This document shows, in pieces, positions 1-16,865 of a DNA stretch of 64,000 nt (its first letter is position 1; each line of letters starts with the position of its first letter). The stretch is from Dethiobacteria bacterium (lineage in GTDB: Bacteria; Bacillota; Dethiobacteria; DTU022; UBA8154). Both the position numbers and the translations under genes were made by a program. A model generated the notes under the pieces. The model searched no databases. It was not told the DNA's origin and was given only the letters and a program-made list of their open reading frames with translations. The stretch spans positions 7,313 to 71,312 of the forward strand of contig JBMNEM010000006.1 of assembly GCA_050948785.1 (NCBI GenBank), in the 5' to 3' direction.

Positions 1-909
1 GTTATCATAAAGCTTGGCCGGACACAAAACCAAGACATTGTCTTCCCGAAGTTCAAAGTATTTAATCACGGCCAGAGCTTCGAAGGTTTTTCCCAGACCA
101 ACACTATCGGCAATAATACACCCGTTATATTTGTTAATTTTCTGGATAGCGGAAACCGCCGCATCTTTTTGGAACTCATACAGGCTGTTCCAGATCACCG
201 ATTTTTTAAAACCTGTTCGATCCTTTTCAAAACGCTCTACACCGCTATCAAGCTGGCCGCCGAAAAGCTCCTTCAATGTAAAGTAATACAAAAATTCAGG
301 GGAATAATCCTTGTAAACATAATTGAGGCTTTCCAGCAACACTCCTTTGTAGTCTTCGGTATAATCATTATTGCTCCAGATAATCTGAAAGAGCCTTTTA
401 AAGTGCTCCATCTGGGCTTGATCATTAACGATAGAGTTGAAATGAATCGGTGCAAGTTCACCGCGTTTTGTCCTTCCGGATACTTCAAGGGAGGAGGTGC
501 CGTGTATGGCTACTTCGTCATCAATCATGATAATATTGCCCGTAACTTTACCTGGCAATTTAACTTTTCTGACATTGACATGACTTTTAATAAAATCATG
601 CATGGACTTTGCTTTGGAAAAATGTATAAGTTTGTTTTTTTGAATGATATCATAGGAGTTGAAAAAGAGATCGCTGGTATTTTGACTGATTTCAAATTCA
701 CGGGGCAACTCACGTCCTGATGGCACATAAGCAGTATTACGGATTATAAAGTTGATTTGATCTACATTCTGCAGGTTTTTGGAAAGTTCCCCGAACACGG
801 ATAAAGTCAACTTATCGTTGATAATATTAATGCTCCTGCTGTTCTTGGCCTGGAGAACTTCATTGATTTTTAAGATAAGCTGGTCGTTGGAGCTAATGAC
901 CTCATGCAT
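1..909 (-). CDS. SNF2-family (RapA/HepA-like) helicase, N-terminal 303 codons; continues beyond window start; N-terminal region with degenerate PLD/HKD-like motif
   Basis: Minus-strand ATG at 907-909 preceded by GGAGGT; uninterrupted frame to position 1 (absent from the ORF track because no stop lies in the window). Translation contains ...KINKYNGCIIADSVGLGKTFEALAVIKYFELREDNVLVLCPAKL = helicase motif I of SNF2 type (xADxVGLGKT). Upstream 'GNIIMIDDEVAIHGTSSL' resembles the end of a PLD HKD motif but lacks the H and K. Confidence 0.6.
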   Translation of the reverse strand, partial: MHEVISSNDQLILKINEVLQAKNSRSINIINDKLTLSVFGELSKNLQNVDQINFIIRNTAYVPSGRELPREFEISQNTSDLFFNSYDIIQKNKLIHFSKAKSMHDFIKSHVNVRKVKLPGKVTGNIIMIDDEVAIHGTSSLEVSGRTKRGELAPIHFNSIVNDQAQMEHFKRLFQIIWSNNDYTEDYKGVLLESLNYVYKDYSPEFLYYFTLKELFGGQLDSGVERFEKDRTGFKKSVIWNSLYEFQKDAAVSAIQKINKYNGCIIADSVGLGKTFEALAVIKYFELREDNVLVLCPAKLYDN

Positions 910-1005
910 ATTTGCTGTACCTCCTAATCCCCACCCTTATCTTTCCATATCTTCAAAGCAATTCCAACCTCCGCTTTCCCACAGTGTTATAATCTTTTTT
1001 ATCGT

Positions 1006-1041
1006 CTAAAAACCTGCCGCGGGGAAGGTTCCTGTGGCAGG
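1006..1041 (-). terminator. Rho-independent terminator downstream of TM2-protein gene
   Basis: Minus-strand hairpin CCTGCC...GGCAGG followed by TTTTT (plus-strand AAAAACCTGCCGCGGGGAAGGTTCCTGTGGCAGG). Confidence 0.4.
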
Positions 1042-1129
1042 TCCAACTGTTGCTGAAGCAGGATAAAAATGATGAAAAAAAACAGGCAGGTTGGGGGGGG
1101 TATATCGAAGAATTTAAAGACAAAAGGAT

Positions 1130-1465
1130 TTAAGGAGCGGGAATAGTGTCTTGCGTGGCAATGTCTCGCAAAGCAATAATTTTGCCAATAAGCAGCTTCT
1201 CTACGGTTTCGTTGTGTCTATCTACCCATGAGTTGATGAAAAAAGCGTTGATAAGAGTCCAGACACCAAGGCCGCCAAGAGTAAGCGTCATAGCAACTCC
1301 CATTCCAATGTGTCCAAGATAATACCGATGTCCTCCGATGCCACCCAAAAACAGCCATAGCAGCCAGGTAATGAGTTTGGATTTCTTTTGTTTCTCGTAT
1401 TCGATTGAAAAAATATTTAGCTCGTGTGGCGTAAATTTACTTTTAGCAGCAAGGAGCGTGTCCAC
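1130..1465 (-). CDS. TM2 domain-containing small membrane protein
   Basis: 111 aa with motif 'GGIGGHRYYLGHIGMGV' (TM2 domain GxHRFYLG signature), two predicted TM helices; RBS AAGGGGGAAG upstream. Confidence 0.6.
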   Translation of the reverse strand: MDTLLAAKSKFTPHELNIFSIEYEKQKKSKLITWLLWLFLGGIGGHRYYLGHIGMGVAMTLTLGGLGVWTLINAFFINSWVDRHNETVEKLLIGKIIALRDIATQDTIPAP

Positions 1466-1647
1466 AGTCGGCTTCCCCCTTAGGTTAATTATGGTTTACT
1501 TAAATATTCTATAAAAACAAGACAATTCCTGCCTCATTTATTCAGTCTGTCCCTCATTGACCAAATTGAAAACGGAGAGCCTCTTCTAGACGCAAAAAAC
1601 GTTTTTGAAAAGATGAGAAAAAAATATGGAAGAGAATAGTTATAGTG

Positions 1648-2942
1648 TTATATTTCCCCAAAGATAAGGTGCTCCATGATCAATACCGCTAAAACTCCTA
1701 CCACAAACCCGTTGCCGAGAAGGGGCCTTAAAATAACTGGAAACGTGTTCAAGACACTATCTGGCAGGAAAGAGATGATGATGCTCAGCATGAGGGGAAG
1801 CCCGATCACCAGGCCATTTTCAAAATGAAAACCCTTTTGAGCATCAAGGACCATGGTTAACCCCGCGGCAATCTGTGAACACATGATGTAGAGAAAAACG
1901 CCGCCCACTACTACCGGCGGAATACCGCCAATAAAGGCAATTACCGGCGGCAGAAACGACACGGCCAGTACAGAATCAGGCCGGCAGGTATAAGGGTAAA
2001 GCGTGAGGCGCAGCCTGTCGAGGCAATTACGCCGGGGCTCAGGGAAAAATTGACCGGGCCAATCACACCCCCAAGACCCGCCAGAAAATTAAGTATGCCT
2101 GTCAGTGAAAGCCCCCTGGTAACCCGTTCCGGCATACGCTCCGGTTTCAGCAAGCCACCCACGGAGTAGATCGAACCCAGATCATTGATGGCCAAAGCCA
2201 AAAAACAGACAAGAAAAGAAATAATGACTCCCGGTTCAAAACTCAGGTTGAAATTCGTTTTGAACAAAAAGTCAGCAGTAAATTTATCCTGAACGGCCGG
2301 TGCGCTTTCCAAACCCTGGGGAAAAACCAGGTAATAAACAACTGTCCCGGCAATCAGTGCCCACATAATCAAGGTGGATTTCCAAAAACCGTCAACATGC
2401 CTGCTCACCGCAAAGATACAGAGTACAAAAACCAGAACAAAGCACAAATTTGCCCAGGCAAGTTCAGGGACAGCAGAGGATGTGCTCAGATTTAAAATCA
2501 TGGGCGTAAGGGTAAAAGCAATCATGATCAGAATGGTGGCCACAACCGGTGGTGTAAAAAGTTTTTTGAGATGGTTGAATAATCCCGCAGCACTCAGCAG
2601 AAAAAGAACAAGGCCCCCTAAAGCCATAGCTGTATAGATAGCGCTGATCCCGCTCCCCCGGCTGGCAGCGATCCCCACAAGGAGTATTGTGGCCGGGCCC
2701 ACTACAAGCGGCAGCTGGTGGCCCCATAACAACTGAACCAAAAGAGAAGCCCCTACTACAAAAAACACTTTTTGAATATAGGTAATCTGCTCTACAAATT
2801 CACTAAAATGCAAACCGGCCACTATATTCCCCACAATCACAACAATCGGAACCATAATTGCCAACCACTGCAAACCCAGGAATATCAGTTCAGCAAGGGG
2901 TGGCATCTCATCAAGCCCGTATTTAAACTTTACCCGATCCAT
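1648..2942 (-). pseudogene. NCS2-family nucleobase (xanthine/uracil) permease, interrupted by a frameshift near 1963-1980
   Basis: ORFs 1941..2942 (333 aa) and 1648..1962 (104 aa) are consecutive parts of one ~430-aa NCS2 permease ('...GVIASTGCASRFTLIPAGLIL' then 'LAVSFLPPVIAFIGGIPPVVVGGVFL...') in frames offset by 1 nt. Either an authentic frameshift or a sequencing error. Confidence 0.6.
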
Positions 2943-9994: not shown

Positions 9995-10245
9995 TTATTT
10001 TTTACCTCCATTGCCCTCTCGGAAAAAACCCGTAACATCCTGGCTTTTTCCCAGCCCACATCAGGCCTATTTTTTCCCAGCCGGCAATTGCCTGATACCG
10101 CCCACTTACTATTAAACAGGGATGCTGTTATAATTTTAATAAAATAAAGAAAAGAAAAAAATCGCTTAAAAGCATGGAAGCAAGTTTAAAAAAGAGTGAA
10201 TTAAGGGTTAACACTTTTGGATCAACCCAAAAACCAAACATATAA

Positions 10246-10274
10246 TTGACCAGAAAACAGATAAGATATATAAT
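10246..10274 (+). promoter_or_regulatory. Consensus sigma-A promoter (TTGACC-17-TATAAT) for the histidine kinase/response regulator operon
   Basis: TTGACC at 10246-10251, 17-nt spacer, TATAAT at 10269-10274; ~60 nt upstream of the kinase start. Confidence 0.55.
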
Positions 10275-10334
10275 TTTAATGAAGTGAAGCCTATTTAAAT
10301 TTTTGGAAAGAATATTAAAAGAATATTAAAGGGT

Positions 10335-12014
10335 GTGAAGCTTTCCATGCTTTCTTCCGAATTAGATACAAAAGCGGAGTTAATCCTGGTCTGTAGAGTA
10401 AGTCCCACATTTAATGTCGGCAAAAAGCTGGAAATTTCTCTACAACGCATCCTGCAAAATTCCATAGATTACTTTGAATTTTGGCGCGCAGGCCTTTTCC
10501 TGGTGAGGGAGGGCCGACCCCCCATCTGGTGGAAGGCTGCCAAAGAGAAGCTTACTAAAAAAAGTAAAAAAACAGACCGGTGGTCACAACTTTGTGAGCA
10601 CCTCTCTACAGCAAAAAACAATAATGAACAAAAGGTGCTGGAACCCTTCAATCCAGTAATTGCCACTACTTTACCGGTAATTTTAAGAGCCGGCGAGCCA
10701 GTGGGCACAATGGAGATAGGCATTTTCAATACTGACATTCAAAATGCCCAATATATGCTTGTCAAAGCCGTTTCTCTTGGCCGGCATATGGCCGATATCA
10801 TTCAGGAATCTTTGTTCCAAAAACAAAAAGGCCCCCACTTTATGAAGCTGGCGGTCTGGATGGAAATGGTCAATACCATCAGCTCTACCCTGGACATTCG
10901 ACAGGTTCTTCATGTTGTAGCCCAACTTACAGCGGATCTTTTTTCTGCCAAAAGCTGTATCTATCTGCTGGATGAAGAAGATCAAACCTTGATTCCGGCT
11001 GTCGCCGTGGGCAGCTACGATCCGGAATTGCGGAAAAATTTTAAAGCGTTACGGGGAACCAAGCCCTTTCCGGCTATCACCCGTGTAATTAAAACCCAGC
11101 AGCCGGTTTTAGTTACCCCGCAAAATATACACCGTTTTCTTACACCTGATATTATTAAAGATTTTAACTATGGTTGGATGGTCCTGGCTCCCATACTTGT
11201 TGAAGATAAGACCATCGGGGTAATGCAAGTGGACCGCCCTAAGGAAACGACAGGTTTCGATCTGGAAGAAAACGAGATTATTTTTGCCATTGCCCGCGCT
11301 ACGGCTATCGCCATGGAAAACTCCCGGTTAATAGAAGTGCTGGAACAAAAGGAACAGCTTTTACACCAACTGGTTAATAAGATTATTACGGCGCAAGAAG
11401 ATGAACGCAAGCGCTTGGCTGCTGACTTGCACGACGGTATCATTCAGTCCCTTATTGCCATCTGGTACCGCTTACAGCGGATCAAATCCGCTCCGGAAAC
11501 CGATCCTGAAAAATGGTACGACGAAATCTCCGATCTGACCAATCTTTTAAGCGAACAAATTCAAGATATCCGGCGCATCCTTTACGATCTCCGTCCTCTG
11601 ATTTTGGATAACTATGGCCTTATTCCCGCAGTGGAATCTTATGTCCACAACTTACAGGAAAAACACAATCTGCCCGTTGAAATAGTCACCAGTGGGAAAG
11701 ATAAACGACTGGAGTCAAAAACCGAGGTTACACTATTTAGAATATTGCAAGAAGCGCTCACCAATGTGATCAAACATGCCCATGCTACACAGGTAAAAGT
11801 AAAGCTGGCCATCACAAAAGAAGAAGCAACCTTGGAAGTCGAAGATAACGGTACCGGCTTGGATTTTGCGCTCCTTTCCGCCGGCCAGGCCCGCAACCGC
11901 CTGGGCTTAGCCAGTATTCAGGAGAGAGCACTTTTGTTGGCCGGTTCATGCAACATAGATTCACAACCGGGAAAGGGTACACATATTACAGTAAAAATTC
12001 CCTTAAAAAATTAA
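10335..12014 (+). CDS. Cytoplasmic sensor histidine kinase with two GAF domains, HisKA_3 (NarX/DegS-class) dimerisation domain and HATPase
   Basis: 559 aa, no TM segments; H-box 'LAADLHDGIIQSLIAI', C-terminal ATPase 'LQEALTNVIKHA...VEDNGTGL'; the start may instead be the ATG at 10347. Confidence 0.8.
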   Translation: MKLSMLSSELDTKAELILVCRVSPTFNVGKKLEISLQRILQNSIDYFEFWRAGLFLVREGRPPIWWKAAKEKLTKKSKKTDRWSQLCEHLSTAKNNNEQKVLEPFNPVIATTLPVILRAGEPVGTMEIGIFNTDIQNAQYMLVKAVSLGRHMADIIQESLFQKQKGPHFMKLAVWMEMVNTISSTLDIRQVLHVVAQLTADLFSAKSCIYLLDEEDQTLIPAVAVGSYDPELRKNFKALRGTKPFPAITRVIKTQQPVLVTPQNIHRFLTPDIIKDFNYGWMVLAPILVEDKTIGVMQVDRPKETTGFDLEENEIIFAIARATAIAMENSRLIEVLEQKEQLLHQLVNKIITAQEDERKRLAADLHDGIIQSLIAIWYRLQRIKSAPETDPEKWYDEISDLTNLLSEQIQDIRRILYDLRPLILDNYGLIPAVESYVHNLQEKHNLPVEIVTSGKDKRLESKTEVTLFRILQEALTNVIKHAHATQVKVKLAITKEEATLEVEDNGTGLDFALLSAGQARNRLGLASIQERALLLAGSCNIDSQPGKGTHITVKIPLKN

Positions 12015-12039
12015 CATCCCTGTAGAGGAAAGGAGGCTT

Positions 12040-12750
12040 ATGGTGACCATTAAACTTTTGATTGTAGACGACCACCCCATGGTTAGAGAAGGTTTGTCAG
12101 TTATGCTGGCCACCTGTGATGAAATCACTTTACTTGGTAGCTGCAGCAACAGTGAGGATGCTATAAAAGCAGCTATGGAAAAAGAGCCCGACATCATTCT
12201 CATGGATATCAAAATGGAAGGGAAAAGCGGGATCGAGACAACTAAAGAAATTTTAATCCTGAAGCCTCAGATTAAAGTCATTTTTTTAACTGTTTTTGAA
12301 GATACGGAATCAATTCGTCAGGCTTTACAATCTGGTGCTGCCGGTTATATCTTAAAGCATGTTTCCCGGGAAAAATTGATCGAAACCATAAAACGTGTCT
12401 TTAATGGAGAAACCGTCATCGACCAATCGATTTTTCATCAAATAGTGAACGATTATACCCGCTTGAGTAAAAAAGTTGCCGAAACAAGTGGATCCCTGAA
12501 ACAAGAAAAAATTGAGGATTTAACACCGCGTGAACAAGAAATCCTGCAGCATCTGGTTAAAGGGCTAACTAATAAAGAGATCTCTACAGCTACCAATCTG
12601 GCGGTGGATACTGTAAAAACTCATCTTCGCAATATTTTCCGCAAATTTGGTGTAAAAAATAGAACACAAGCCATTACCCAGGCAATGAAATTAAGTCGGA
12701 ACCCGGATAGTGTCCTTTTTTATGATCTCAGAACTATGGGGCGGGAGTAA
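12040..12750 (+). CDS. NarL/FixJ (LuxR-HTH) family response regulator
   Basis: 'LLIVDDHPMVREGL' receiver domain; C-terminal 'LTPREQEILQHLVKGLTNKEISTATNLAVDTVKTHLRNIFRKFGV' HTH. Confidence 0.85.
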   Translation: MVTIKLLIVDDHPMVREGLSVMLATCDEITLLGSCSNSEDAIKAAMEKEPDIILMDIKMEGKSGIETTKEILILKPQIKVIFLTVFEDTESIRQALQSGAAGYILKHVSREKLIETIKRVFNGETVIDQSIFHQIVNDYTRLSKKVAETSGSLKQEKIEDLTPREQEILQHLVKGLTNKEISTATNLAVDTVKTHLRNIFRKFGVKNRTQAITQAMKLSRNPDSVLFYDLRTMGRE

Positions 12751-12770
12751 TTTATTGTGGTTACTCCCAC

Positions 12771-12801
12771 CCTATCCACTCCCGGGTAGGCTTATTTTTT
12801 T
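12771..12801 (+). terminator. Intrinsic terminator after response regulator
   Basis: CCTATCC-ACTCCC-GGGTAGG hairpin followed by CTTATTTTTTT. Confidence 0.55.
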
Positions 12802-12802
12802 A

Positions 12803-12840
12803 AAATTAAAAAAGAACACCCTTGCAAGTGTTCTTTTGTG
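12803..12840 (-). terminator. Intrinsic terminator after tsf (bidirectional hairpin)
   Basis: AAGAACAC...GTGTTCTT 8-bp stem flanked by A-run on the plus strand and T-run on the minus strand. Confidence 0.55.
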
Positions 12841-12863
12841 ATGATTTATTTTTATCAGGAAGT

Positions 12864-13469
12864 TTACGGAGATTCCAAACTCTCGCCTATCTCAAAGCGC
12901 ATAAAACGGCGGATAATAATATTTTCACCTATCTTGGCCATTTTTTCCGTAAGAAGCTCTTGTATAGTTTTTTTATCATCCTTAATAAAAGGCTGTTCTA
13001 AAAGACAGTTTTCCTGAAAATACTTTTCAATCCGGCCGCCAATTATTTTTTCCACAATCTTTTCCGGTTTACCTTCGCGCAGCGCTTGTTTGCGTAAGAT
13101 TTCTTTTTCTTCTTCTATAACTGCAGCAGGCACATTTTCCCGGCTGAGATAGAGGGGGTTGGTCGCAGCAACCTGCAGGCAAATATCTCTGACAAAATCC
13201 TTGAATTCTTCATTACGGGCAACAAAATCCGTCTCACAGTTAACCTCAACCAGGACACCAACTTTGCCTCCCATGTGAATATAAGAATCGACAACCCCCT
13301 GGGCCGCGATCCTTCCCGCCCTTTTGGCCGCACTGGCCAAACCTTTCTCGCGTAACAAATTGATGGCCTTTTCTTTATCGCCGCCCGTTTCCACCAAGGC
13401 TTTTTTACAATCCATCATCCCGGCACCGGTTAAAGTCCGGAGTTCCTTGACCATCTCTGCTGTAATCAT
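12864..13469 (-). CDS. tsf: Translation elongation factor Ts
   Basis: 201 aa; '[24 protein letters not shown]' UBA-like N-terminus and EF-Ts core. Confidence 0.9.
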
Positions 13470-13518: not shown

Positions 13519-14316
13519 TTATTTATTAAGCATTTCCTTTTTCTCATCATTGCCAGTACTATTCACAGGCTCTTTGGCCGTCTCCTCTGCCTCACTCTTC
13601 TCTTTTCTTTCAGCCTCCGCTTGAGCAACCTGCAGGCCCTGCTTACCCTCCAGCGATGCCTCCGCAATTTTGGAGGTAATCAGCCTGATCGCCCTGATAG
13701 CATCATCGTTACCCGGTATCAAATAGTCAACTTCGTCCGGGTCACAATTTGTATCTACAATGGAAACAATCGGTATTTCCAATTTACGCGCTTCAGCAAC
13801 AGCTATTTTTTCCTTACGGGGATCAACAATATAAACTGCCCCGGGAAGTTTCTGCATATCACGTATGCCACCTAAAAACTTCAACAATTTTTCCTTTTCA
13901 TGGCGCAGCTTGATAACTTCCTTTTTAGGCAGACTTTCAAAGTAGCCATCTTCTTCCCTTTTTTCCAGCTCTATCAGCCTGTTGATACGTTTACGAATTG
14001 TGCTGAAGTTGGTAAGCATGCCCCCAAGCCAGCGCTGATTTACAAAGGGCATTTCACAGCGCGTAGCCTCTTCTAGGATAGATTCCTGCGCTTGTTTTTT
14101 GGTGCCCACAAAAAGAATTTTTTCTCCCTGTAACACCAGGTTTTTGACAAAATTGTAGGCTACATCCATCAAGCGGACCGTCTTCTGCAGATCGATAATA
14201 TAGATTCCATTCCGCTCTGTAAAAATATATCCACGCATCTTGGGGTTCCAGCGCCTTGTTTGGTGCCCAAAATGGACCCCTGCTTCCAACAGCTGTTTCA
14301 TGGTAACAATGGACAT
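13519..14316 (-). CDS. rpsB: 30S ribosomal protein S2
   Basis: '[27 protein letters not shown]'; start set at the internal ATG (14314-14316) preceded by AAGGAGGT rather than the longer ORF-track start at 14436; Lys/Glu-rich C-terminal tail. Confidence 0.9.
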
Positions 14317-14470
14317 TTTACGTACTCTACCTCCTTGGTTTAGCCTCCGCTGTATCATTACCGCAGGAAGCCCTTTAAAGGGCACCTCCCCACGATTTCC
14401 ACAGCGTGCGTATTTAAGCCATACGTAGTATAACATAGTTCCTGATAATTGACAATCTACGCCACTTATT

Positions 14471-15241: not shown

Positions 15242-15316
15242 TGGTGGGCGAACGGCGATTTGAACGCCGGACCCCCTGCTTGTAAGGCAGGTGCTCTCCC
15301 ACTGAGCTATTCGCCC
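15242..15316 (-). tRNA. tRNA-Val (anticodon UAC)
   Basis: Reverse complement GGGCGAATAGCTCAGTGGGAGAGCACCTGCCTTACAAGCAGGGGGTCCGGCGTTCAAATCGCCGTTCGCCCACCA: cloverleaf, anticodon loop CUUACAA, encoded CCA. Confidence 0.85.
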
Positions 15317-15321
15317 CTTGG

Positions 15322-15397
15322 TGGTGACCCCTAGGGGATTTGAACCCCTGCTGCCAGCTTGAAAGGCTGGTGTCCTCACCGATTAGACGAAGGGGCC
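15322..15397 (-). tRNA. tRNA-Glu (anticodon UUC)
   Basis: Reverse complement GGCCCCTTCGTCTAATCGGTGAGGACACCAGCCTTTCAAGCTGG...GGGGTCACCA; anticodon loop CUUUCAA. Confidence 0.8.
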
Positions 15398-15401
15398 AAG
15401 A

Positions 15402-15477
15402 TGGTGGGCCCACTAGGACTCGAACCTAGAACCAACCGGTTATGAGCCGGTAGCTCTGCCAATTGAGCTATGGGCCC
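15402..15477 (-). tRNA. tRNA-Met (anticodon CAU; elongator or lysidine-type Ile2, not initiator-like)
   Basis: Reverse complement GGGCCCATAGCTCAATTGGCAGAGCTACCGGCTCATAACCGGTTGGTTCTAGGTTCGAGTCCTAGTGGGCCCACCA; anticodon stem lacks the three G-C pairs of initiator tRNA. Confidence 0.75.
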
Positions 15478-15484
15478 ATAAAAA

Positions 15485-15559
15485 TGGCTCCCCAGGCAGG
15501 ATTCGAACCTGCAACCCACCGGTTAACAGCCGGTTGCTCTACCGTTGAGCTACTGAGGA
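15485..15559 (-). tRNA. tRNA-Asn (anticodon GUU)
   Basis: Reverse complement TCCTCAGTAGCTCAACGGTAGAGCAACCGGCTGTTAACCGGTGGGTTGCAGGTTCGAATCCTGCCTGGGGAGCCA. Confidence 0.85.
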
Positions 15560-15758: not shown

Positions 15759-16865
15759 CTATTCCAGGTAGTCTTTAAGCCGCTTGCTGCGCATCGGATG
15801 TCTTAACTTGCGCAGCGCTTTGGCTTCAATCTGCCTGATACGCTCCCTGGTCACCCCGAAAACCTGCCCTACTTCTTCTAAAGTACGGGTGCGTCCATCA
15901 TCAAGGCCAAAACGTAGACGCAGCACTTTTTGTTCACGAGGGGTCAGTGTATCCAGGACATCCTCCAGTTGTTCCCGGAGAAGTTCGAATGCCGCCGCTT
16001 CAGCAGGTGCTTGAACTTCCTGATCTTCAATAAAATCCCCCAAATGGCTGTCGTCTTCCTCCCCGATAGGTGTTTCCAGGGAGACCGGTTCCTGGGCTAT
16101 TTTAAGAATTTCCCTGACTCTTTCCACGCTGGTATCCATCTCCTGGGCAATCTCTTCCGGTGACGGTTCGCGACCGAGTTCCTGGACAAGCTGCCGCGAA
16201 ATCCTGACCAGCTTATTGATCGTTTCCACCATATGGACAGGGATACGGATCGTTCGGGCCTGGTCGGCAATAGCCCTGGTGATCGCCTGCCTGATCCACC
16301 AAGTTGCATACGTGCTGAACTTATATCCCTTCCGATAGTCAAATTTTTCCACAGCCTTAATCAGTCCCAGATTGCCCTCTTGAATAAGATCCAGGAAAAG
16401 CATACCCCTGCCGACATATTTTTTGGCAATACTCACCACCAGGCGCAGGTTGGCTTCCGCCAATCGCCTTTTTGCCTCCTCTTCACCCTCTTCCATCCTC
16501 TTGGCCAGCTCAACTTCTTCTTCCGGTGTCAGGAGAGAAATTTTTCCGATTTCTTTAAGGTACATCCGTACAGGATCATTGATGCTTATTCCCGTGGGAA
16601 GATAGGTATTGGTTTCTCCTTCCGGGGCATTTTTCGAATTCTCTCCTCCACCTGTATCGACATCCGCTGCTTCGTCCACCACTTCAATACCCTGGCGGGT
16701 GAGCTCTTCATAAAATTCGTCGATCACTTCTGTAATCAGGTTAAAATCCTGCAGGGCATCAAGAATTTCCTTATAGGTAAGGTTACCCTTTTTTTTGCCC
16801 TTTTCGAGGAGGGAACGTTGTATTTCCTGTAAAGAGGCTTTCTTTTTCACTTCTTTAGACATCAA
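15759..16865 (-). CDS. rpoD: RNA polymerase primary sigma factor (sigma-70/SigA)
   Basis: '[34 protein letters not shown]' region 2.4/3, region 4 HTH at C-terminus. Confidence 0.9.

Follow-up and report, generated by a model that had tools for sequence, protein, structure and literature searches.

What is the gene that runs off the left edge of this piece of Dethiobacteria DNA, a housekeeping helicase or part of a defence system, and is the degenerate nuclease-like domain it carries an oddity? The stretch analysed (the window) comprises 64,000 nucleotides of contig JBMNEM010000006.1 from a Dethiobacteria bacterium (GenBank assembly GCA_050948785.1, positions 7,313 to 71,312 of the forward strand). 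Judged by profile comparison, the edge gene is a fresh member of the catalogued family PDLC01075, and in relatives the helicase is shown to be the first gene of a conserved operon encoding the helicase, a DUF4391 protein, a Type III methyltransferase (Mod) and a Type III endonuclease (Res). We consider it likely that its complete product is an SNF2 double-stranded DNA translocase of about 1055 residues, which carries a dead phospholipase D (PLD) domain and works with Mod and Res via DUF4391 while Res cuts. The gene and its flank are divided as follows.

1 to 909, minus strand: 5' part of the pseudo-PLD/SNF2 helicase gene, codons 1-303 of about 1055; family PDLC01075 ('HKD+Snf2')
310 to 909, minus strand: PLD-fold N-terminal domain, catalytically degenerate, about residues 1-200
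487 to 543, minus strand: remnant of the HKD motif, residues 123-141, from the family alignment
127 to 300, minus strand: helical linker from the PLD-like domain to the helicase core, about residues 204-261, from the secondary structure of an AlphaFold2 model
1 to 183, minus strand: start of SNF2 ATPase lobe 1, residues 243-303, from Pfam SNF2-rel_dom and ResIII matches
919 to 925, minus strand: Shine-Dalgarno sequence AGGAGGT, nine bases 5' of the ATG, read directly from the sequence
910 to 983, minus strand: upstream leader of the helicase gene, ~75 nt, common to other carriers of the gene by blastn

Identity of the edge gene

As a preliminary description of the window had proposed, a minus-strand gene with a ribosome-binding site opens here: translation is free of stops over 303 codons, from an ATG at 909-907 to position 1 and off the left window edge. 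The start is correctly placed, because homologues from isolate genomes and metagenome-assembled genomes (L008, L010, L012 and L128) are aligned from residue 1 onward. The SNF2 motif I that the same description located at residues ~265-303 is also present, as residues 265-282 read IIADSVGLGKTFEALAVI (DSVGLGKT at nucleotides 85-108) and are followed by motif Ia, LVLCPAKL. Pfam SNF2-rel_dom matches residues 257-302 with an E-value of 1.7e-5, just short of the gathering score, since the window shows no more than ~50 residues of this domain.

Beyond the window edge the gene can be followed in a 2.7-kb contig (L006) of the metagenome-assembled genome 'Clostridiales bacterium AS08sgBPME_86', which is 97.9% identical in nucleotides to window 1-1097 and therefore represents the same locus. 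It carries the frame on to 852 codons with helicase motifs II (DESH), III (SATP), V and VI (QRFGRIDR) intact, and a motif search found motifs I-VI intact in L006, L128 and L008. The closest complete genes encode 1054-1056 residues; amino acid identity is 91% for L128 (GCA_046128195.1, 1056 residues), 86% for L010 and 80% for L008 (Sporolactobacillus sp. STSJ-5). The idea that homologues are generally truncated or split, raised by a first search that gave only proteins shorter than 530 residues, was dropped once a wider search and a genome scan gave proteins of ~1050 residues; the short matches come mostly from short contigs or from candidate selection. One low-coverage ENA contig (L001) is frameshifted past codon ~437.

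Family membership follows from the PADLOC model PDLC01075 ('C3a139, HKD+Snf2'). The fragment matches this profile directly over its N-terminal part (residues 1-303 against positions 1-272 of 948, E 2.1e-57) and close relatives match it end to end, as in the full-length L008 protein (positions 1-947 of 948, E 9e-254), a profile agreement far beyond chance. Although the label implies an HKD motif, this motif has been lost in the clade of the window gene. NCBIfam holds no model for the family, and its DrmD, DpdE, ZorD and RapA models match around motif I only; PGAP names the proteins just 'helicase-related protein', and the PDB holds no solved structure of the family, the matches there being generic SNF2 cores only. 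Two further identities were rejected on score. The L128 protein reaches 124 bits against the cut-off of 1100 for the 'phospholipase D-like anti-phage protein', and PADLOC HmaA, of the Hma/Type-2 BR helicases, matches the C-terminal lobe alone with 95 bits, where PDLC01075 reaches 843.

Operon partners and the state of the HKD motif

Clustering of neighbouring open reading frames (ORFs) around the helicase gene in 26 genome loci revealed exactly three conserved partners, all 3' of the helicase, and no further cluster in more than five loci. The first, of ~240 residues, is DUF4391 (PF14335; Pfam E 1e-45). The second, of ~650-720 residues, is a Type III Mod methyltransferase (N6_N4_Mtase; PADLOC MTase_III E 8e-169) in which DPPY is present. 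The third, of ~1020 residues, is a Type III Res with ResIII and RE_endonuc (E 1e-26) domains (PADLOC REase_III E 5e-201), matching NCBIfam PRK15483 at E 4e-92 and 310 bits, below the equivalog cut-off of 564. At the L128 locus the order is helicase, DUF4391, Mod and the start of Res, which is cut by the contig end; L007 (89% amino acid identity) has all four genes, and DUF4391, Mod and Res also lie 3' of the gene in L010 and L008.

The operon is common and apparently uncharacterised. The helicase matches 533 plasmid records, and in 110 of these the match covers 80% of the protein or more. All four genes are annotated by PGAP on plasmids of B. cereus, E. faecium, Enterobacter asburiae, Acinetobacter sp. 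NEB149 and Vibrio vulnificus, in the order 'helicase-related protein / DUF4391 domain-containing protein / site-specific DNA-methyltransferase / DEAD/DEAH box helicase family protein'. Some plasmid copies carry inserted insertion sequence (IS) elements or extra genes. On an Acetobacter ascendens plasmid Res is unannotated and split by an IS1380 element, and a hidden Markov model (HMM) built from the partner cluster finds its two pieces; on a Desulforapulum plasmid neither the annotation nor an HMM scan shows a Res after Mod. In literature searches 'DUF4391' occurred in two papers, both unrelated, 'PF14335' was absent, and 'C3a139' appeared in a survey of CRISPR accessory genes alone; searches for SNF2, HKD and Type III combinations led to systems that are related without being the same (Hma, BR systems, PbeA, CglI and MORC operons).

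A metagenome scan with HKD-intact queries added 80 more loci, and all loci were sorted by HKD state and their neighbours scanned with HMMs built from the partner clusters; architecture counts are limited to the 50 loci whose downstream sequence reaches 7 kb or more (21 HKD-intact, 29 degenerate). Where the HKD motif is intact, one fused methyltransferase gene of 1200-1600 residues comes next in 20 of the 21 loci, and Mod or Res in none. Degenerate loci encode Mod and Res in 23 cases out of 29, with a free-standing DUF4391 detected in 21 of these 23, and never the fused methyltransferase (0/29); the others have DUF4391 and Mod only (3/29) or none of the partners (3/29). The preliminary suggestion of a defence link with methyltransferase, nuclease or DUF-type partners is thus borne out in relatives. 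An active HKD motif and Res never occur together among the sampled loci, and three apparent exceptions turned out to be one truncated gene, one split gene and one His-to-Asn change. Seven plasmid examples with DUF4391 and Mod, six of them with Res, all have a degenerate HKD motif (7/7). Every examined member of the Res-linked branch lacks the HxK/N residues, so a dead PLD domain is the rule in this branch and not an oddity; the earlier view of a helicase-fused, inactivated PLD domain as an unusual configuration does not hold.

The fused gene of the HKD-intact loci combines a weak N-terminal DUF4391-like region (20-26 bits) with an Eco57I/N6_Mtase methyltransferase. Pfam gives DUF4391 matches, all below threshold, in four of five fused proteins, a TaqI_C specificity domain is found in two of the five scanned, and PADLOC reads the methyltransferase as Type IIG- or DrmMI-like. 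Aligning the free-standing DUF4391 with the fused N-terminus in hhalign (probability 96.3%, E 1.8e-9, 158 columns) confirms, at the level of profiles, that the two are homologous. DUF4391 is accordingly a constant partner of the helicase, whether free-standing or fused to the methyltransferase.

Several loci depart from these two architectures. Within the HKD-intact clade, L093 (1570-4911) has Asn at the catalytic His (LLNGKMYHV...GSSNFT) with the fused methyltransferase still next, which could reflect recent inactivation or a read error. A ~520-560-residue ATPase of the SMC/AAA_23 type follows the two-gene HKD-intact system in both loci scanned with Pfam (L076, 16934-18604; L083, 17481-19034). 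PADLOC matches the L083 ATPase to mad3 (E 6e-16), and mad2 is matched by the fused methyltransferases of both L049 and L083; the ATPase may act as a third component or connect the system with MADS-like ones. On the Enterobacter asburiae plasmid NZ_CP083835.1 (L044, 11970-15262) an 'ATP-dependent endonuclease' of 626 residues and a DUF2130 gene stand between DUF4391 and Mod, and a WYL-domain gene lies 5' of the helicase; small helix-turn-helix or WYL genes lie 5' of the helicase on other plasmids as well. Four metagenome contigs (L002-L005; L002 10001-16054) carry a 60%-identical helicase copy that ends at 429 residues. Next come a 189-residue ORF and the genes for a YhcG/DUF1016 PD-(D/E)XK nuclease and a Type III Res; Pfam annotates neither DUF4391 nor Mod near the 429-residue copy. 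This variant, which is rearranged or decayed, occurs in several samples. In the protein P0029 the helicase N-terminus is fused in frame to YhcG_C.

The pseudo-PLD domain, its proposed role and competing explanations

The N-terminal domain is a separate PLD-like domain, as first described, and its catalytic residues are indeed lost. The direct Pfam match to PLDc_2 is weak (E 0.081, residues 91-178 against profile positions 49-132; 13.2 bits, cut-off 27). HKD-intact relatives align to fragment residues ~14-303 with E-values of 1e-36 to 1e-41 and exceed the PLDc_2 gathering score at the same positions, with 31-43 bits. The closest structural matches are PLD-superfamily folds, the non-catalytic FAM83 and TrmB among them. 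The domain thus has the fold of the PLD (HKD) superfamily nucleases Nuc, BfiI, NgoAVII and SauUSI and lacks their catalytic HxK(x)4D...GSxN signature. In the family alignment the segment KVTGNIIMIDDEVAIHGTSSL pairs with FLHGKMYHI...GSSNFT of relatives, which places T123 at the His site, N125 at the Lys site and S140 at the Asn site of GSxN; D130 is kept, and G137-T-S-S140-L stands in place of the GSSNFT of active members. The corresponding H128, K130 and N149 are invariant in the HKD-intact set A2. Several distinct types of degenerate motif occur within the family. In the clade of the window gene N always stands in for the Lys and S for the Asn, and the remnant is strongly conserved as x-G-N ... 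D-D ... G-S/T-S-S-L-E, which fits a retained, non-catalytic role of the pseudo-PLD domain. The linker that follows carries the conserved family residues Y208, W240, F246 and Q247, which are invariant columns of alignment A1.

The same conservation can be read as a constrained pocket, in which case the PLD-like domain would still be a nuclease using non-canonical residues, and the helicase a restriction subunit beside Res. Fusions of an HKD domain to an SF2 helicase do act as the nuclease in SauUSI, PbeA and Type-2 BR systems. We regard this as unlikely for the window gene, and favour a translocase whose PLD domain is dead.

Under the translocase proposal, Mod would recognise the target sequence and mark host DNA, Res would supply the cut as a PD-(D/E)XK endonuclease, and the SNF2 protein would contribute ATP-driven translocation on unmodified DNA and not cleavage. 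DUF4391, which is fused to the methyltransferase in the sister branch, may be the adaptor that ties the SNF2 protein to Mod and Res. Nuc, BfiI and SauUSI are PLD nucleases that dimerise through the PLD domain; for this reason the dead domain may be kept as a scaffold for dimerisation, DNA contact or both. FAM83A/B DUF1669, which are eukaryotic kinase scaffolds, and the sugar-binding domain of the archaeal regulator TrmB belong to unrelated biology and serve as a precedent for a non-catalytic PLD role only. In the sister branch without Res, the domain that keeps HxK...GSSN is presumably the nuclease, being the sole candidate there, with a motor like those of SauUSI, PbeA and Type-2 BR helicases, and the HKD-SNF2 protein would be guided by the DUF4391-bearing protein that combines methyltransferase and target-recognition domain (TRD). 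Because HxK...GSSN is kept in the Res-less branch, the nuclease role seems to have passed from the HKD domain of the helicase to Res.

We further posit, at somewhat less than even likelihood, that the four-gene operon is a widespread, experimentally undescribed class of ATP-dependent restriction system, namely a Type III enzyme with a DUF4391-docked SNF2 motor. Its sister would be the two-gene system of an HKD-active SNF2 nuclease-motor and a DUF4391-methyltransferase-TRD fusion; Res would have taken over the nuclease role, leaving the pseudo-nuclease with a new dimerisation or DNA-sensing job, and the window would hold one end of such an operon. The exclusivity of HKD and Res suggests how nuclease modules swap in ATP-dependent restriction systems, and the family offers a natural case for studying the job of a retained pseudo-nuclease domain. 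It also gives a testable picture of a common operon labelled in databases only as 'helicase-related protein / DUF4391 / methyltransferase / DEAD-box helicase'.

Several observations weigh against these proposals. The complementarity of HKD and Res largely follows two clades: in a crude neighbour-joining tree of the helicase core, intact and degenerate members form two blocks with one misplaced representative each way, the HKD-intact representative P0136 grouping with the degenerate block. The pattern may therefore reflect one or a few evolutionary events and not repeated replacement. Literature searches turned up no experiment on any family member, and what the SNF2 protein and DUF4391 do is therefore inferred from architecture. 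Any partner genes of this copy would lie left of the window, and only 852 codons of the helicase are recoverable, from L006, which ends inside the gene. Some relatives are disrupted, by the split of L007 into 606 and 458 residues and the end of L002-L005 at 429, and the unseen part of the window's copy could also be damaged. As to L007 itself (10001-13160, Firmicutes bacterium UBA5486), the three genes downstream of its two helicase ORFs are intact, and the split is either a pseudogene or an assembly error.

Among known systems, SauUSI of Staphylococcus aureus (PDB 7CLG) joins a PLD nuclease and an SF2 helicase in a single ATP-dependent, modification-dependent protein with an active HKD motif and its own TRD, whereas in the window family the HKD motif is dead, the motor is of the SNF2 type, and recognition and cleavage are presumably left to Mod and Res. 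In relatives the partner genes match Mod and Res of Type III restriction-modification systems (EcoP15I, Mod2Res1-2) over their full length; the classical systems have two genes, and here the SNF2 helicase and DUF4391 are conserved upstream in addition. The Hma/Type-2 BR systems (DUF499 ATPase, N6-methyltransferase, HKD-SNF2 helicase, DUF3780; PMC12839542) share an SNF2 helicase with a nuclease domain in an operon resembling restriction-modification, and in Type-2 BR the HKD domain is N-terminal as in the window gene; HmaA with its PD-(D/E)XK domain (PMC11232893) is likewise an SNF2 helicase bearing a nuclease domain. These systems differ from the window family in helicase family, in their DUF499 and DUF3780 genes, which are not neighbours here, and in that their nuclease is active.

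The DISARM helicase DrmD is the next-best profile match after PDLC01075, and DrmMI is likewise a next-best match. In DISARM class 1 (DrmD, DrmMI, DrmA, DrmB, DrmC) the SNF2 helicase and the PLD protein are separate partners; the system shares with the operon an SNF2 helicase, a PLD domain and an adenine methyltransferase. The edge gene might then be a DrmD with a fused DrmC-type PLD protein, acting with DrmA and DrmB and not with a Type III enzyme, and on B. cereus plasmids the four-gene module does lie directly 3' of DrmA and DUF1998 (DrmB-like) genes. We nevertheless judge this improbable. For DrmD the L128 protein obtains 154.5 bits where the cut-off is 610, and for DrmD_b 108.1 where it is 950; PADLOC DrmD reaches 135 bits against 843 for PDLC01075, and PGAP does not call the proteins DrmD. 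Neither the 26 genome loci nor the six remaining plasmids that were examined show a conserved DrmA- or DrmB-like cluster, most loci lack DrmA and DrmB, and the PLD domain is fused and inactive where DrmC is separate and active. The B. cereus arrangement, seen in L041 (4110-17843, plasmid NZ_AP022875.1) and on some 14 plasmids like it, suggests that DISARM and a Type III-like module form a composite locus there.

Another role, that of a type III CRISPR-Cas accessory protein, is implied by the origin of the PADLOC model: C3a139 is cluster 139 ('HKD+Snf2', representative Tthe_0931) of a survey of genes beside type III cas cassettes, where it was seen in 4 loci (Shah et al. 2019, PMC6546367). That label does not fit the conserved neighbourhood, which in about 50 loci consists of DUF4391, Mod and Res or else of the fused methyltransferase; no other cluster recurs as noted above, and the seven plasmid annotations show no cas genes, though no search was aimed at them. 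Proximity to cas in 4 loci is as expected from the clustering of defence genes in islands, and we consider an accessory role very unlikely. Least probable of all is a housekeeping RapA/HepA- or YwqA-like protein without a defence role, which an SNF2 ATPase with weak RapA matches in NCBIfam and the PDB and housekeeping genes to its right might suggest, and which is refuted by the RapA score of the L128 protein (55.4 bits, cut-off 576), the PLD fold in place of RapA's Tudor-like N-terminal domains, the restriction-modification neighbours in relatives, the unrelated contexts of close relatives and the frequency on plasmids. For the window, this settles the annotation of the edge gene as the probable motor subunit of a restriction-modification-type defence module, in whose clade a dead nuclease domain is normal.

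Module boundary and the rest of the window

The helicase gene and its leader look like the first part of a separate module that runs leftwards out of the window, because blastn similarity to other carriers stops just upstream of the gene, at window 948 for L001 and 983 for L007. Farther 5', only the same-locus contig L006 stays similar, up to its end at window 1097, and the gene 5' of the helicase differs between carriers (a UvrD-like C-terminus in L001, dnaX-recR in L128). A consensus scan of window 700-1500 found no sigma-70-like promoter and no terminator. Between the TM2 gene and the leader lies a poly-C/poly-T tract at 1070-1110 (ccccccccaacctgcctgttttttttc on the minus strand), which probably breaks assemblies, since L006 stops within it.

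The boundary at ~948-983 does not agree with the preliminary description, in which the helicase sat at the outer edge of a 12.8-kb accessory block interrupting the rpsB-tsf neighbourhood. The rpsB (13519-14436) and tsf (12864-13469) genes are adjacent on the minus strand, and the gene content of the supposed block is ordinary: window 1-12.8 kb, past tsf, encodes a GAF histidine kinase, a LuxR-type response regulator, a methyltransferase, CbiM/CbiQ/CbiO of an energy-coupling factor (ECF) transporter, a DinB polymerase, a split xanthine/uracil permease and the TM2 protein, with no defence gene and no mobility mark among the genes right of the helicase. The permease gene (Pfam Xan_ur_permease, 1648-2942, minus strand) is divided into ORFs of 333 and 104 residues that overlap at 1941-1962; a frameshift that made it a pseudogene, or an error in sequencing, is the probable cause. 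The tsf product has 201 residues, a short form of EF-Ts, and the gene is followed by the two-component system on the opposite strand and not by the usual pyrH-frr. An ORF of 185 residues without family assignment adjoins rpsB. Four tandem tRNA genes (15245-15559, minus strand), the only matches in an Rfam scan of the window, lie between this ORF and an rpoD-like sigma factor gene (15759-16865).

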